NCBI GenBank assembly: GCA_964556185.1
Contig: CAZKVI010000003.1
Span: 2,089-66,088, forward strand
Length of the DNA stretch: 64,000 bases
From: an uncultured Methanosarcinales archaeon
GTDB taxonomy: Archaea; Nanobdellota; Nanobdellia; Woesearchaeales; DSVV01
Reading direction: 5' to 3'
The notes under the pieces were generated by a model that worked only from the letters and a program-made list of their open reading frames with translations, was not told where the DNA came from and searched no databases. Shown here piece by piece: positions 1,503 to 50,508 of this stretch. Both the position numbers and the translations under genes were made by a program. Position 1 is the stretch's first letter. The number at the start of each line of letters is the position of its first letter.

Positions 1503-1772
1503 ATGGGGAAAAAGTTAACTAATTCTGATTATGTAAAAATTAAGAAAAACATTCTTAAAAGATTATATTCTAAACAAGCATTTAGTCAAGGCCATTTGTT
1601 ATATGAAAGATTACGATCAAGTATCCCCCCTCATTTACATGGATTTGTAGAAGATGTTCTTAAAGATCTTATAAAAGATGGGTTAGTTATATCTTATGGA
1701 AAAACAAAACATGGAAATGCTTATCAATTAAATATTAAGAAATTAGATGAGATTGAGAATATAATAATTTAA
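1503..1772 (+). CDS. Small hypothetical protein (possible wHTH)
   Basis: 89-aa ORF with native composition. Confidence 0.3.
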   Translation: MGKKLTNSDYVKIKKNILKRLYSKQAFSQGHLLYERLRSSIPPHLHGFVEDVLKDLIKDGLVISYGKTKHGNAYQLNIKKLDEIENIII

Positions 1773-2914
1773 TTGAAATAACTCAAAACCCTATCTATTT
1801 TTTTATTTTTCTTATATTCTTTAGCTAAAGACATAACTTTCTTCTTGTCAATATCCAATCCACTTCTCTCGATAAACTTACCTGAAGAGAAGAATTGCAG
1901 AACTTGAGTTACATTCTTTGGTCTTTCAGAATAATTAGATCTTTCAAAGTCAATCAAATGAATTTTGTTCTTGTCGTCGATTATAATATGTTTCATTGGT
2001 TTATGCATCTCTTCTTTGTTTATGTTTAATTCATCCATTTTCTTCATCAATCGCAATAATTGTCTCATTACATCTTTTATTTCTTTTTTATTTCCTTTCT
2101 CAAATAAATCATGTATCAATTTCCCGTCAACAAATTCCATTACAAAGTAATCATCGCAACCAAAACACAATTTTGGACCTATTTTTTCTTTATTTAGTTT
2201 CTTTAGCCAGTTTTTCTCAATCTTTACTCTTGATATTGCTTCACTCATAGGATTTTTAGATTTGACAACAACTTTTTTACCTTTATAATTAGCTAAAAAC
2301 AATAATCCTCTATTACCTTTTGTAAAATATTGAACATTTGTTAATCCTTTTCCTTCTAAAGTTTTCAAAAACTTTTGTTTTTCAATAATATAAACATACA
2401 ATTCTTCAAAACCAACTTTCAACTTATCAATTTCCTTAAACTCAAATAAATTTCTATCTAAAATCTCACAAACTTTCTTTTTCTTAGATAATGAACTAAA
2501 TAATAACAATATTTTACCATTTTCAACTAAATAAGAATTAACATTATCCAAAAACCTCTCAATAAGTTCATAACCTTTTTTACCTCCATCTAATGCAATA
2601 TCTCGAGCATAATCTTTCTCAGGATCTGGTAAATAAGGCGGATTAAAAATAACTAAATCAAACTTCCCAGTAACTTTTGAGAACAAATCACTTTCAATAA
2701 CTTTTACATTCTTCAAATTTTGTTGTTTAACATTCTTTTGAACAAACTTAACAGCTTCTGGATTAATATCAACAGCTAATACATTAGCATATTTAGCAGC
2801 TTCTAAAGCAAGTATTCCAGAACCAGTACCTATTTCCAATACATTACCTTTGCAATAGTCTTTCAAATGCTTTTGCAATAGATAAGAGTCTTCTCTTGGT
2901 TGATATATTTCCAT
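1769..2914 (-). CDS. Fusion protein: N-terminal HemK/PrmC-type N5-glutamine methyltransferase (Mtq2-like) and C-terminal RIO/Bud32-like protein-kinase-fold domain
   Basis: N-terminus has LEIGTGSGILALEAAK (SAM-binding glycine-rich motif I) and FNPPYLP (the NPPY substrate motif of HemK/N6-adenine methyltransferases). C-terminal half has HLIDFERS (the IDFxxS motif of RIO/Kdo kinases) and IHDLFEKGN (catalytic-loop-like). Confidence 0.6.
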   Translation of the reverse strand: MEIYQPREDSYLLQKHLKDYCKGNVLEIGTGSGILALEAAKYANVLAVDINPEAVKFVQKNVKQQNLKNVKVIESDLFSKVTGKFDLVIFNPPYLPDPEKDYARDIALDGGKKGYELIERFLDNVNSYLVENGKILLLFSSLSKKKKVCEILDRNLFEFKEIDKLKVGFEELYVYIIEKQKFLKTLEGKGLTNVQYFTKGNRGLLFLANYKGKKVVVKSKNPMSEAISRVKIEKNWLKKLNKEKIGPKLCFGCDDYFVMEFVDGKLIHDLFEKGNKKEIKDVMRQLLRLMKKMDELNINKEEMHKPMKHIIIDDKNKIHLIDFERSNYSERPKNVTQVLQFFSSGKFIERSGLDIDKKKVMSLAKEYKKNKKIDRVLSYFN

Positions 2915-2950: not shown

Positions 2951-3451
2951 CTAAAAATCCAAATCAATTTTCCTAAAATAGTCAGTTACTCTGCTCATTA
3001 TTGGTGGTAAAACATATTGTTCAATCTTCTCCCTATAAACATCTTGTAAATCACTGAATTCAACAATTCTATAATTATTCTTAATTTTCTCAACAAGAAA
3101 AATATCTCGAAGTCTTTTAATTTGTCTTCTTACATTTGAAGAAGCCACTCCAGTCAAAGGTAATTCATAATTATTCCTTGTTTCAATTACCATTGATCTT
3201 ATTTCATCAGAACTTAAGTTCTTTCTGTCTTTTTTTGCTTCTAAAATAACATAGAGTACATCAACAATTACATCTCTACTATCACCTGGCTGTAAAAGAC
3301 CCATGCTTAAGCAGAACTTTCTTACTAATTCTCTTTTATCCAAGGAATCTGGTTTTTCATATCTTCTTAATGTGAGTTCCATCAAAGGAGTATCGCGGGA
3401 GATTGTTGCCATAATTATCACCTCAATTATATGTAGCAGCATTGAGCTCAA
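2951..3451 (-). CDS. Hypothetical protein (possible DNA-binding regulator)
   Basis: 166-aa ORF. The true start is likely the internal Met (MATISRD). Confidence 0.3.
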   Translation of the reverse strand: MSSMLLHIIEVIIMATISRDTPLMELTLRRYEKPDSLDKRELVRKFCLSMGLLQPGDSRDVIVDVLYVILEAKKDRKNLSSDEIRSMVIETRNNYELPLTGVASSNVRRQIKRLRDIFLVEKIKNNYRIVEFSDLQDVYREKIEQYVLPPIMSRVTDYFRKIDLDF

Positions 3452-3741: not shown

Positions 3742-6700
3742 CTAAACCTTCTCACAACTTATCAAAACTTCCATCTTTTTAATCTTCTCTTTAGAACAAT
3801 CTTGTAATGTGTCTGCTTCAACACCAACAAAGATCTCAACAGCCCCACATTTGTCTTTAATATCATCTTGCCATTTGATTAACATATCAACATATGATTG
3901 AGTACTCTGCAAATGCAATTTAATATTATCTTTTTTCTCCAATCCTAACTTTTTCCTAAATGCTTGAACTCTTCGCATGACTTCTCTGGAATAACCTTCT
4001 GCATCTAAGTCAGGAGTTCTTGTTTTATCTAAAAACAATTGTCCATGTCTATATTCTGCTTCAACTAAGTTCTCAGGCAGTTCTTTCTCAATAATAAAGT
4101 GCTCTTTTTTCAAACTTACTTTATGTCCATCTAAAACAACAGTATGTGCACCTTTTTCAACATCTGCCAAGATTTTCTCGTCAGCAACTTGTATTAATCT
4201 AGTAATTATTTTAGGAACTAATTCACCATATTCTTGACCAATTGTTCTATGGTTTGGTTTCATTTTTATCTTAACTTCAGTACACTTATCAACTAATTCA
4301 ATATGTTTGACATTTGTTTGTTTTTTAATAGTTTCATCTAACTTAGTAATAGATTCAATAGTATCATTATCAGTAACTACAATCCTAATTTTACCAACAG
4401 GCCATCTTACTCCTAGTTGTGCTCTTTCACGAGCAGCTAAAATACTTTGAATTGTATCTTTTGCAATAGAAAACTCTTTTTCTAAAGAGTTATCAATAAA
4501 CTTTGCATCAAATTTAGGCCAATCAAACAAATGAATACTCTCAACCTCAAGATCAAAGTACTCTTTCAAATCTTGATACATTCTCTCAGCTATAAATGGA
4601 GAAACAATTGCAAACATTTTCAAATTCTCTAAAAATGTTTCAAATATAACATTAAATACAACTTGTTTTTGTTCTTCCAACCCAAGAGCTGCTTTCTCAC
4701 GAACCAATTGAATATATGTTCTTGATAATTCCATAAATATTTCTTCAACTTTCAAAGGAACTTCATTTATCTTATAACTATCCATTAATTCTGTTATTTC
4801 TTTAATACCAGAATGTAATTTTGAAATCATATACTCTTCTTCTTGTTCTAAACAATTCTTATCAATTCCAGTGAATTTCAAACCATTATTCTTAGCTAAA
4901 TCAATTATAAACTTGTGCAGATTCCAATACACACCTAAATTCTTATATTTTAATTTACAGTCATCAAAATTATAATTAATATCAATTCCAGGATTAGCTC
5001 CACCAATCATATAATATCTTAATGTGTCTGCTCCGTATTTATCAACAACTTCTTGAGGTAAAATATAATTACCAAGAGATTTACTCATCTTACGTCCCTG
5101 TGAATCTTGTACAAAACCATGCATGTAAACATTTCTAAAAGAAGGTTTTTCCATGCTTACCATAGAAGCAACATGTAATAAATTAAACCAACCTCTAATT
5201 TGATCTTTTCCTTCTAAAATAAAATCAGGTGGAAACAAATTCTTAAAATTCTCTTCTTTATGTGGATAATCCAAACAAATCCATGAAGTACAACCAGCAT
5301 CTACCCAAACATCTAAAATATCTGGAATTCTTTTTTTAACACCACCACAATCACATTTGATTGTTACTTCATCAATCCAAGGTTTATGTAATTTCTCTAC
5401 TTTTTGTCCTGATAACTTTTCTAATTCAGCAACATCACCGACGACAATATAATTATCACACTCTTCACATCTCCATACTGGTACTGGTGTTCCCCAGAAT
5501 CTTTGTTTTGTAATAGAATTGTCTCTTAAGTTTTCTAACCATGAATTAAAAGCATTATAAGCAGCTTGAGGTACCCATTTAATTTTATTATTCTCTTCAA
5601 TTAACTTTTCTTTCATATCATCTACTTTAAAGAACCATTGTTTTGTAGTTTTATAGACAACAGCTTCATGACATCTCCAACAATGTGCATAACTATGATT
5701 AGTTTTACTTTGTGCAATTAAAGTGCCATTCTCATCCATTAGTTCAACAAATTTCTTATCATCTTTCTTAGCAACTAAACCAGAGAACTTTGAATCATCC
5801 TTTGGATATGTGCCATTTTCATCAATAAGATTAAATGGTTTAATACCTTTTCTTACACATAATTCATAATCAGAATCCCCGCAACCAGGTGCAAAATGCA
5901 CTAAACCAGTACCATCATCTAAATGTACATATTCATCTGATAATAAAACTGTATAAATCTTATCTTGTGTTTTTCTTGCTTCTTTAATTTGAGGAAATGA
6001 ATTTTCAAAAGAAGGAATATATTCTTTGCCTTCTAATTTCTTTCCTTTGAATTCTTCAACAATTTCATAATCTTTTCCTGCTTTTAATTTAATAACTTCT
6101 TCTGCAAGGTCTTTTGCAACAATCCAATGTTCATCACCAACTTTACATTTAACATATTCAAAATCAGGATGTACAACAACTGCTAGATTAAAAGGAATTG
6201 TCCATGGAGTTGTTGTCCAAATGATTAAATAATCATTTTCAGTTCCTCTTAATTTAAATCTTAAATAAATAGAATCATCAGTAATATCTTGGTATTCTAA
6301 TTCATGCTTTGCTAATGCTGTTGCACACGAAGCACACCAAGTCATTGCTCTTTCTCCTTCATACAATCTTTTATTTTCATGTGCTTTTTTAATTAACCAC
6401 CATTCTCCTTCAATAAATTCTTTTGAAATAGGTTGGTAAGCATTTTCAAAGCCCATCCATACACCTAATCTAGTAAAATCCTTATTCATTACATGCATAT
6501 TTTCTATAGATAGTTTTTTACATTCTTCAATAAACTTAGCAACACCAAACTTCTTGATTCCTTCTTTTCCATTAATTCCTAGTTTCTTTTCAACTGCATG
6601 CGCTGTAGGTAATCCATGCATATCATAGCCAGCTCTATCCCAAACATTGAAACCAGCCATTCTTTTATATCTAAGAACCATATCTTTTAGTGATTTGTTC

Positions 6701-6921
6701 CAAGCAGTACCTATATGAACCTTCCCAGAAGTATAAGGTGGTCCATCTAAGAAATAGTAGTCTTGGCCATCTTTACATTTATCTTTAGCTTTCTGGTATA
6801 TACTGTTCTTATCCCAGAACTCTAAAGTGCCTTCTTCAACTTCCTTGAAATCATAATTCCCTACTTGCATAAGAATTAGTGAATGAATGAGTGATTTATA
6901 AATATTATGGCATAATAACAC
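3742..6921 (-). CDS. ileS: Isoleucyl-tRNA synthetase
   Basis: 1059 aa with a HIGTAWNK (HIGH) motif, a KMSKS motif and a CP1 editing domain. Archaeal-type IleRS length. Confidence 0.95.
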   Translation of the reverse strand: MLLCHNIYKSLIHSLILMQVGNYDFKEVEEGTLEFWDKNSIYQKAKDKCKDGQDYYFLDGPPYTSGKVHIGTAWNKSLKDMVLRYKRMAGFNVWDRAGYDMHGLPTAHAVEKKLGINGKEGIKKFGVAKFIEECKKLSIENMHVMNKDFTRLGVWMGFENAYQPISKEFIEGEWWLIKKAHENKRLYEGERAMTWCASCATALAKHELEYQDITDDSIYLRFKLRGTENDYLIIWTTTPWTIPFNLAVVVHPDFEYVKCKVGDEHWIVAKDLAEEVIKLKAGKDYEIVEEFKGKKLEGKEYIPSFENSFPQIKEARKTQDKIYTVLLSDEYVHLDDGTGLVHFAPGCGDSDYELCVRKGIKPFNLIDENGTYPKDDSKFSGLVAKKDDKKFVELMDENGTLIAQSKTNHSYAHCWRCHEAVVYKTTKQWFFKVDDMKEKLIEENNKIKWVPQAAYNAFNSWLENLRDNSITKQRFWGTPVPVWRCEECDNYIVVGDVAELEKLSGQKVEKLHKPWIDEVTIKCDCGGVKKRIPDILDVWVDAGCTSWICLDYPHKEENFKNLFPPDFILEGKDQIRGWFNLLHVASMVSMEKPSFRNVYMHGFVQDSQGRKMSKSLGNYILPQEVVDKYGADTLRYYMIGGANPGIDINYNFDDCKLKYKNLGVYWNLHKFIIDLAKNNGLKFTGIDKNCLEQEEEYMISKLHSGIKEITELMDSYKINEVPLKVEEIFMELSRTYIQLVREKAALGLEEQKQVVFNVIFETFLENLKMFAIVSPFIAERMYQDLKEYFDLEVESIHLFDWPKFDAKFIDNSLEKEFSIAKDTIQSILAARERAQLGVRWPVGKIRIVVTDNDTIESITKLDETIKKQTNVKHIELVDKCTEVKIKMKPNHRTIGQEYGELVPKIITRLIQVADEKILADVEKGAHTVVLDGHKVSLKKEHFIIEKELPENLVEAEYRHGQLFLDKTRTPDLDAEGYSREVMRRVQAFRKKLGLEKKDNIKLHLQSTQSYVDMLIKWQDDIKDKCGAVEIFVGVEADTLQDCSKEKIKKMEVLISCEKV

Positions 6922-29236: not shown

Positions 29237-29356
29237 CGGGCCCACGGGGATTCGAACCCCGGGCCTATGGCTGTCTGTGCGTAAGCAAAGACCCAGTGGA
29301 TCTTTGATCCTAACGCGTAAGAGGCCACCGCTCTAACCAGGCTGAGCTATGAGCCC
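29237..29356 (-). tRNA. tRNA-Lys (anticodon CUU) with a ~45-nt intron at the canonical 37/38 position
   Basis: Minus-strand read: GGGCUCA-UA-GCUC-AGCCUGGUUA-GAGC-G-GUGGC-CUCUUA[intron]A-GCCAU-AGGCC-CGGGG-UUCGAAU-CCCCG-UGGGCCC-G. All four stems pair. The T-loop is TTCGAAT. Confidence 0.7.
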
Positions 29357-48649: not shown

Positions 48650-48763
48650 CGCTGTGGCCCGGATTTGAACCGGGATATCCCGGAGGAAACAAGCTAAACA
48701 GTGCATGCCTTGAAAATACATACATTTCCAGGCTTGCGCAGTACCAGGTTGTGCCACCACAGC
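48650..48763 (-). tRNA. tRNA-Ser (anticodon GGA) with a ~30-nt intron at 37/38 and a long variable arm
   Basis: Acceptor GCUGUGG/CCACAGC plus G. Anticodon stem CAAGC/GCUUG. Loop CUGGAA[intron]A. Variable arm ~15 nt. T-arm CCCGG-UUCAAAU-CCGGG. Confidence 0.65.
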
Positions 48764-48770
48764 AAAAAAA

Positions 48771-48897
48771 GGTGGCAGTGGCGGGATCTGAACCCGCGGC
48801 TTCTAGATCGCCCAGATATAAAGTTTAATCATCGGCATGAGCCTCATCACTCAAATCTTATGAGTCTAGCACTCTAACCAGGCTGAGTTACACTGCC
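48771..48897 (-). tRNA. tRNA-Met (CAU anticodon; possibly Ile2 if C34 is modified) with a ~50-nt intron at 37/38, encoded CC, and an oligo-T terminator
   Basis: Acceptor GGCAGUG/CACUGCC plus A plus CC. D-arm ACUC-AGCCUGGUUA-GAGU. Anticodon stem CUAGA/UCUAG. Loop CUCAUA[intron]A. T-arm GCGGG-UUCAGAU-CCCGC. The intron contains GUGAUGA (C-box-like). Confidence 0.65.
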
Positions 48898-50120: not shown

Positions 50121-50269
50121 AGCGAAGTTAGAAGTTCAACAAGAACTTCTCATTATTACCCATATACTGGATAATAACCTTCATATCAATATTAATGCCA
50201 TAGGTTATATATAAACCTTTCGGTTATGTAGTTACTTTAGAGGAGTTAATATATAAAAGAAAGTATATA

Positions 50270-50341
50270 TGGACTCACCGAGATTTGAACTCGGAGTCTC
50301 CCCGAAGCCAACGGGGTGCGATACCATTTCGCCATAAGCCC
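50270..50341 (-). tRNA. tRNA-Ala (anticodon GGC), intron-less
   Basis: Acceptor GGGCUUA/UGAGUCC includes the G3:U70 alanine identity pair. D-arm GCGA-AAUGGUA-UCGC. Anticodon arm CCCCG-UUGGCUU-CGGGG. T-arm CCGAG-UUCAAAU-CUCGG. Confidence 0.8.
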
Positions 50342-50508
50342 ATACAATGCTAGCTACATATATGCTTATATATAATTTACGCTAATTTCTCACTATATGT
50401 AGTACTTGTACACATTACATAACTTTCTAATAAAGCAATCCTAATATACAAATCATAACCTTTTTATATCACCTTAGTCATACTTTGACTTAACACGGGG
50501 GTGTTTAA

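Follow-up and report, generated by a model that had tools for sequence, protein, structure and literature searches.

What kind of protein joins an NPPY methyltransferase to a kinase-like domain, is the joining genuine, and on what would its two halves act? These questions are raised by a gene near one end of a 64,000-nucleotide stretch of contig CAZKVI010000003.1 (assembly GCA_964556185.1, titled as an uncultured Methanosarcinales archaeon), the whole of which is referred to here as the window. A previous reading of the same DNA, made without database searches (the sequence-only reading), described a HemK/Mtq2-type methyltransferase translationally fused to a RIO/Bud32-like kinase domain. On balance we think it probable that the gene specifies a bifunctional modifier of the translation apparatus, combining an Mtq2-type methyltransferase for the release factor aRF1 with an ArkI-type tRNA 2'-kinase.

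A methyltransferase and a kinase-fold domain in one reading frame

The gene and its two domains lie on the minus strand, as follows.

1769..2914, minus strand: complete gene for the predicted bifunctional protein of 381 amino acids; one open reading frame (ORF) initiated at ATG, with its stop codon at 1769-1771
2381..2914, minus strand: HemK2/Mtq2-type N-methyltransferase domain dependent on S-adenosylmethionine (SAM), residues 1-178, from TIGR00537, NF011529, PF05175, Foldseek and a Protein Data Bank (PDB) profile search
1772..2377, minus strand: predicted RNA kinase domain of the ArkI family (AQ578/COG2112), residues 180-381, from PDB phmmer and profile searches, Foldseek and charge

Both the ORF listing and the raw sequence show that 1769..2914 is continuous, with no stop or frame break near position 2330, where it had been decided beforehand to look for a frameshift or assembly error. 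Four contigs from four different samples and independent metagenome assemblies encode the identical 381-residue protein. Homologues of 369 to 468 residues are common (at least 120, with query coverage of 90-100% and identities of 45-92%). A scan of one representative genome per species recovered at least 567 related stretches, and the best 80 of these, which are the species loci counted throughout this text, all align over approximately residues 1-370/380 in a single frame. Because the protein is identical on four contigs, has at least 120 homologues and is read in a single frame at all of the 80 best loci, we conclude that the fusion is real and conserved among relatives, as the sequence-only reading proposed; the same observations rule out a frameshift or misassembly at about 2330. 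A further question posed in advance, whether orthologues are fused or split, has a mixed answer, in that the fused form occurs in at least 80 species loci and adjacent unfused pairs are found in relatives. Public names of the homologues mention a methyltransferase only, or read "hypothetical protein", and the kinase half has gone unrecognised because Pfam and NCBIfam give no ArkI-family match.

An AlphaFold2 model of the 381-residue protein has a mean pLDDT of 91 and a pTM of 0.83, and the latter implies that the two halves, as modelled, hold a defined mutual orientation. The strand that ends the methyltransferase (residues 170-179) leads straight into a helix at residues 181-188 with no linker between them, and this helix aligns with the first helix of the RNA kinase TkArkI (ArkI of T. 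kodakarensis), at about its residue 21.

The N-terminal half carries two diagnostic motifs, for which, as for all statements of conservation below, residues were scored in an alignment of 52 homologues.

2816..2839, minus strand: SAM-binding motif I, LEIGTGSG, residues 26-33; T30 and G31 invariant, G29, S32 and G33 at least 90% conserved
2633..2644, minus strand: catalytic motif IV, NPPY, residues 91-94, codons AAT CCG CCT TAT; N91, P92, P93 and Y94 invariant

Residues 1-178 score 161.8 bits against TIGR00537 (HemK2/MTQ2; cut-off 87, model positions 1-175 of 179), 197.7 bits over the whole domain against NF011529 (cut-off 162) and 69 bits against PF05175 (Pfam MTS). Human N6AMT1/HemK2 and E. 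cuniculi Mtq2 are matched end to end in PDB sequence searches, a PDB profile search over residues 3-178 gives an E value of 1e-14, and Foldseek with the AlphaFold2 model returns TM(target) values of 0.85 for E. cuniculi Mtq2 (3q87_B) and 0.78 for human N6AMT1 (6kmr_B). The acidic residue D49 is invariant, as is the N-terminal Y-x-P-x-E-D-S motif including Y4, E8 and D9, which pairs with VYEPAEDT of human N6AMT1. With the TIGR00537 and NF011529 cut-offs passed and NPPY invariant, the sequence-only reading of this half as a HemK/Mtq2-type NPPY methyltransferase stands. The domain is near neutral in charge (median +0.8; -2.4 in the query).

This half thus resembles the Mtq2/HemK2 (N6AMT1/KMT9)-Trm112 enzymes, HvoMtq2 among them, in size, fold, NPPY, motif I, the N-terminal Y-x-P-x-E-D-S/T motif and the curated cut-offs, and in some related genomes a Trm112 gene lies near the fusion. 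It differs in that the fusion adds a C-terminal putative RNA-kinase domain of 200 residues, whereas the unfused MTS genes at related loci, like human N6AMT1 and E. cuniculi Mtq2, have a single domain and a length of ~165-230 residues. Archaeal Mtq2 together with Trm112 methylates the glutamine of the GGQ motif in aRF1, a reaction needing GTP and aRF3, and an Mtq2 orthologue has been reported for all archaeal phyla (PMC6144793). Searches of the 64-kb window, and of the sequence up to 10 kb from the fusion at the 80 loci, turned up no second copy of either domain.

The C-terminal half is, by homology, an RNA kinase of the ArkI family. A PDB phmmer search with a C-terminal query of 203 residues matched 8YV4 (E 1.5e-11) and TkArkI (7VNX, E 3.3e-9, query positions 3-201 of 203 against chain residues 21-219). 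The PDB profile search gave 6.4e-20 for Ark1 of G. acetivorans and 8.4e-17 for TkArkI (residues 178-380 against 19-219), and the next kinases after the ArkI structures appeared at E values of ~3e-5. By PDB title alone, 8YV4 and 8YV5 are "G. acetivorans RNA kinase Ark1". Foldseek aligned the ArkI structures with TM(target) of 0.72-0.74, and the kinase half is strongly basic, with a median net charge of +21 and an isoelectric point of 9.9.

ArkI is an RNA kinase that depends on ATP and makes 2'-phosphouridine at class I tRNA position 47, and its family, AQ578/COG2112, for a long time carried the annotation of putative Ser/Thr kinase (PMC9095486). A hallmark is a metal-binding loop that reads DFE instead of DFG; the K32A and G33A substitutions strongly reduce TkArkI activity, and subdomain VIII, with which protein kinases bind peptides, is absent from TkArkI (PMC9095486). 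The corresponding elements of the fusion protein are these.

2306..2320, minus strand: kinase P-loop, K199-G-N-R-G203, equivalent to TkArkI K32/G33 and aligned to its AKGTTS; G200, R202 and G203 invariant
2261..2263, minus strand: ATP-binding lysine K218, equivalent to TkArkI K51; invariant
1988..2017, minus strand: catalytic loop, K300-E-E-M-H-K-P-M-K-H309; K300, E302, M303, P306, K308 and H309 invariant, K308 equivalent to TkArkI K137
1940..1951, minus strand: metal-binding loop, D322-F-E-R325, codons GAC TTT GAA AGA, its D equivalent to TkArkI D149; invariant
1808..1816, minus strand: Y367-K-K369 on the long C-terminal helix (predicted helix 357-370), equivalent to the YKR RNA-binding motif of ArkI and aligned to TkArkI Y200-K201-R202; Y367 invariant

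Ten residues of TkArkI at which a change to alanine impairs the enzyme have the same residue at the aligned position (K32=K199, G33=G200, K51=K218, E65=E233, K137=K308, D149=D322, N160=N334, T162=T336, Y200=Y367 and K201=K368). Seven of these are invariant (G200, K218, E233, K308, D322, N334 and Y367) and T336 shows conservation of at least 90%; K199 and K368 fall outside the lists of residues conserved at 90% or above, and R202 of TkArkI is replaced by lysine, K369. The catalytic residues of both halves are otherwise intact, with the exception in the catalytic loop taken up below.

TkArkI (TK2051, 7VNX) and G. acetivorans Ark1 (8YV4/8YV5) thus match residues 180-381 over their full length in sequence and fold. 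Shared features are the DFE metal loop, the P-loop K-G, the ATP-binding Lys, the alpha-C Glu, the catalytic-loop Lys, the N-x-T of subdomain IX, Y-K-(R/K) on a long C-terminal helix and a strongly basic surface, and Ark1 of G. acetivorans has in addition the KEEM...KH variant of the catalytic loop in common with the fusion. These two proteins and the unfused relatives stand alone at ~175-220 residues, whereas the kinase of the fusion sits behind a methyltransferase. ArkI homologues have been described mainly from thermophiles; the fusion belongs to AT-rich (~30% G+C) DPANN genomes from groundwater and marine samples.

Profile libraries fail to name this half. Every model in the Pfam and NCBIfam scan was below threshold, among them Pkinase at 16.9-18.6 bits (cut-off 31.7) and Choline_kinase at 20 bits, and TkArkI itself reaches only 25.5 bits on NCBIfam, with a Bud32 model. 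The scores are low because the libraries hold no ArkI model. Failure against kinase profiles had been named in advance as a reason to abandon the kinase interpretation; formally this is what Pfam Pkinase gives, but it reflects the missing model. A small-molecule kinase of the choline, APH or thiamine type was considered and set aside, its matches being sub-threshold at 20-24 bits.

The kinase family named in the sequence-only reading has to be replaced. One of its two motifs, IDFxxS, is present as IDFERS at residues 321-326; the other, HxDL, occurs nowhere in the protein, the nearest string being IHDL at 267-270, in a variable, non-conserved hinge outside the catalytic loop. Assignment to RIO, Bud32 or Kdo is rejected, as Bud32 models score 24-30 bits (cut-offs 188-372) and Kdo 12.9 (cut-off 21.3), the catalytic loop reads KEEMHKPMKH, and the matches obtained are to ArkI instead. 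No RIO1 match was reported in the profile scans of this half, and no RIO or Bud32 chains are among the PDB sequence matches listed. Since the kinase half belongs by homology to the ArkI family, its likely target is the 2'-OH of a tRNA nucleotide and not a protein, and the fusion is not best explained as coupling protein phosphorylation to the methylation of a release factor.

Gene pairing and genomic neighbourhood

A HMMER search with the kinase half recovered 1031 representative clusters (50% identity) at E values of 1e-3 or below and 588 at 1e-10 or below. Among the best 150 of the 1031 clusters, 82 are fused and 50 are stand-alone proteins of ~190-210 residues that start just before the P-loop; a K-x-E-(M/L) loop is present in all of them. 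Fused and unfused forms are interspersed in a neighbour-joining tree of kinase domains; its resolution is too low for fusion or fission events to be counted, and it shows only that the two forms are closely related. Six stand-alone kinase genes (L089-L094) were inspected for their neighbours, and four have an MTS gene upstream on the same strand. The methyltransferase gene is directly upstream in L091, L092 and L094, with an 8-nucleotide overlap in L091 and a 60-nucleotide gap in L094, and in L093 a 61-residue ORF separates the two genes; L089 and L090 have no methyltransferase neighbour. The methyltransferase-then-kinase pair is a conserved module that is often fused.

Record titles of the carriers are Candidatus Woesearchaeota, Nanoarchaeota or Nanoarchaeia, and the related contigs L001-L005 have a G+C content of ~29-31%. 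Some titles are odd: L009, L012, L017, L020 and others are "uncultured Methanosarcinales archaeon", and L077 is "Candidatus Binatia bacterium". Gene copies from the oddly titled loci are 41-55% identical to the query, as are those in Woesearchaeota-titled loci, and because the identity ranges match, the Methanosarcinales and Binatia titles look like placeholders or mis-binning.

Three further genes of the window lie close to the fusion gene.

2951..3412, minus strand: conserved protein of 153 residues, directly upstream of the fusion gene with a 36-nucleotide gap; 62-77% identity across loci
3742..6921, minus strand: isoleucyl-tRNA synthetase (IleRS), further upstream; Pfam tRNA-synt_1 and Anticodon_1
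1503-1772, plus strand: ORF of 89 residues without a family match, converging on the fusion gene and overlapping its stop codon by 4 nucleotides

The 153-residue protein is found upstream on the same strand, between IleRS and the fusion gene, in 24 of the 80 loci, and IleRS is upstream on the same strand in 18. Pfam and PDB searches with the 153-residue protein gave no match. It is a highly conserved archaeal protein and a syntenic partner of the fusion gene, and any functional link is putative. Homologues of 153-165 residues lie at L005 4538-5002, L007 5384-5869 and L008 5178-5675, and they are 62-77% identical where the fusion proteins are only ~50% identical. Aminoacyl-tRNA synthetases, TFIIB and the ribosomal proteins L1 and L10 are among the other neighbours.

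Just downstream of the fusion gene and on the same strand, 34 of the 80 loci have a small PF01035 (MGMT-like) gene, which is also present in split-gene loci and might belong to the module as its third member; tblastn found none in the 64-kb window. Genes of this type are ~97-105 codons long (L007 7404-7697, L008 7107-7397, L091 5636-5953, L093 5623-5937), and the three copies that were read (L007, L008 and P0324) retain the cysteine of PCHRV/PCHRI. At L092 4580-5425 (P0324) an ArkI-like kinase is fused to a PF01035 domain instead, in a protein of 281 residues. The slot that the 89-residue ORF occupies downstream of the fusion gene is the position of the PF01035 gene in many related genomes.

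A Trm112 gene lies 1.5-6 kb from the fusion in 9 of the 80 related loci. In some genomes it is a 51-residue zinc-ribbon gene beside TFIIB (L007 8894-9049); the query organism's contig has, in a similar position beside TFIIB, an unrelated zinc-ribbon gene of 51 residues belonging to DUF5679. DUF5679 genes of 48-51 residues lie at L001 15904-16059 and L005 9591-9737.

Predicted activities and alternative explanations

If the halves behave as their relatives do, residues 1-178 would N5-methylate the glutamine of the aRF1 GGQ motif, probably aided by Trm112. Residues 180-381 would use ATP to phosphorylate the 2'-OH at variable-loop position 47 of class I tRNAs, yielding 2'-phosphouridine (Up47). 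The fusion probably arose from a neighbouring gene pair, methyltransferase first and kinase second, that was probably co-translated. It could serve to express together, or to bring to one place, two enzymes that modify L-shaped translation ligands, tRNA on the one hand and its mimic, aRF1 on aEF1A, on the other. When bound to aEF1A-GTP, aRF1 structurally mimics aminoacyl-tRNA on the same factor, and this is a possible link between the two halves.

The tRNA genes of the window were identified using ARAGORN with introns allowed, as a default run reports only one of the four tRNAs; three of the four have introns.

29237-29356, minus strand: tRNA-Lys (CUU)
48650-48763, minus strand: tRNA-Ser (GGA)
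48773-48897, minus strand: tRNA-Met (CAU)
50269-50342, minus strand: tRNA-Ala (GGC)

The variable loops of the three class I tRNAs are AGGCC in Lys-CUU, AAGCC in Met-CAU and AGACU in Ala-GGC. Across a small sample of fusion-bearing loci, 23 tRNAs with five-nucleotide variable loops have U47 in 10 cases, C47 in 10, A47 in two and G47 in one. Because 10 of these 23 loops carry U47, U47 substrates do exist in the fusion-bearing lineage, albeit in a small sample.

Several points weigh against an aRF1 methyltransferase joined to a tRNA 2'-kinase. ArkI modifies U47, whereas all three class I tRNAs of the window have C47. TkArkI requires the H and Q of its H130-G-Q132, which in the fusion protein become K300-E-E302; this K-x-E is invariant in the family, and the KEEM..RH loop recurs in G. 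acetivorans Ark1, so that HGQ may mark a subtype of ArkI and not the whole family. No Trm112 gene was detected in the 64-kb window by tblastn, and the fused methyltransferase may be a paralogue with a new substrate. Both activities and both substrates are assigned through homology, and we know of no mechanistic rationale for pairing a modifier of aRF1 with a modifier of tRNA.

In one alternative both halves act on tRNA, the ArkI domain docking on the tRNA core to phosphorylate position 47 and the Mtq2-like domain, recruited to this task, N-methylating a nearby base (of the m2G or m6A type); the protein would then be a two-step enzyme devoted to tRNA and not a methyltransferase of release factors. 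A tight, conserved pairing and a rigid fusion are typical of enzymes with a common substrate, NPPY enzymes of the MTS superfamily do methylate RNA (RsmC, aTrm11 and METTL5 are among the matches), the near-neutral methyltransferase half could bind RNA with the help of the basic kinase half, and the synteny with IleRS is tRNA-related. We nevertheless consider this unlikely, as the N-terminal half passes curated HemK2/MTQ2 cut-offs, one of them of equivalog type, keeps the P-x-E-D-S motif of the HemK family in alignment with N6AMT1, and is matched far less well by RNA methyltransferases; to our knowledge, archaeal tRNA also has no N-methylation near position 47 that is still without an assigned enzyme. 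The Trm112 gene near some loci is compatible with either interpretation. It is a good deal less probable that the C-terminal half is a Bud32/RIO-like protein kinase or ATPase that phosphorylates or regulates the methyltransferase next to it, aRF1 or a component of the ribosome. The old annotation of the ArkI family as Ser/Thr kinases, the fact that the nearest NCBIfam profile is Bud32 (29.6 bits), and a K-x-E loop unlike the HGQ of the sole biochemically characterised structure all point this way. Bud32 scores are, however, about 10-fold under their cut-offs with no RIO match reported, the fusion retains every RNA-side residue of TkArkI (N160, T162 and the Y-K-(R/K) helix), the domain has a net charge of +21, and the 200-residue domain aligns to TkArkI end to end with no room for subdomain VIII. 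Archaeal Kae1-Bud32 fusions (NF007174, bifunctional t6A synthase/kinase) are a precedent for an atypical kinase-fold domain on a tRNA-modification enzyme, with the differences that the partner is Kae1, that the kinase is an ATPase regulator and not an RNA kinase, and that Bud32 scores for the present fusion are far below cut-off.

The best whole-chain Foldseek match is WbdD (E 6.6e-15), which in E. coli O9a likewise carries, in one polypeptide, a class I methyltransferase at the N-terminus and a kinase-fold domain after it. WbdD phosphorylates the end of a glycan and then methylates that phosphate. By analogy, the kinase might add an RNA 2'-phosphate for the methyltransferase to methylate, giving a cap-like 2'-O-methylphosphate mark, and a rigid, linker-free fusion would suit such a hand-over between active sites. 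The likeness stops at the domain types and their order: with a TM-score of 0.37 and a root-mean-square deviation of 11 A the arrangement of the domains is unrelated, the methyltransferase is of another subtype, the WbdD substrate is a glycan, and no sequence-family relationship exists. The N-terminal half is by sequence membership HemK2/Mtq2, and the NPPY pocket of HemK and of N6-adenine methyltransferases suits amide or amino nitrogens and not anionic phosphate oxygens. We regard this sequence of reactions as very improbable, and rate just as low the broader proposal that both active sites cooperate on one RNA nucleotide, with a 2'-phosphate followed by methylation of the phosphate or of an adjacent base to give a composite tRNA modification not seen before, in an order of reactions known otherwise only from WbdD. 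Least probable of all, to the point of being barely credible, is a mobile or anti-phage defence module of a MADS-like kind, with a HemK-like methyltransferase and a kinase as partners, or else an artefact of frameshift or misassembly. The PADLOC mad2 model does reach 88 bits on the N-terminal half, PD-T4-6 kinase models 33 bits on the C-terminal half and NCBIfam MAD6 a weak 15 bits. These are domain-level matches only (mad2 covers 155 of 492 profile positions, and the MAD6 cut-off is 460) and fall far short of the HemK2/MTQ2 scores; the Pfam-annotated neighbours showed no other defence genes, and synteny with housekeeping genes (IleRS, TFIIB, ribosomal proteins and Trm112) is conserved across species. 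Identity across four independent assemblies and conservation in at least 80 species loci exclude the artefact.

Novelty and implications

Both domain families are already known; it is the architecture and the host range that are new, and no description of a methyltransferase-ArkI fusion was found in the searchable literature, including the supplements of Ohira et al. ArkI and Up47 were described in 2022, mainly as an adaptation of thermophiles. The present data reveal a large, unannotated ArkI-like clade in AT-rich Woesearchaeota and Nanoarchaeia from groundwater and marine settings that are apparently mesophilic, and in these genomes the kinase is usually fused to, or encoded right after, an Mtq2-type methyltransferase. 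They also expose an annotation gap, in that Pfam and NCBIfam give even TkArkI no family match above cut-off. For the organisms themselves, the prediction is that internal 2'-phosphorylation of tRNA would occur in apparently mesophilic DPANN archaea, well beyond hot environments, and the fusion provides a testable genetic link between release-factor methylation by Mtq2 and modification of the tRNA core by ArkI.

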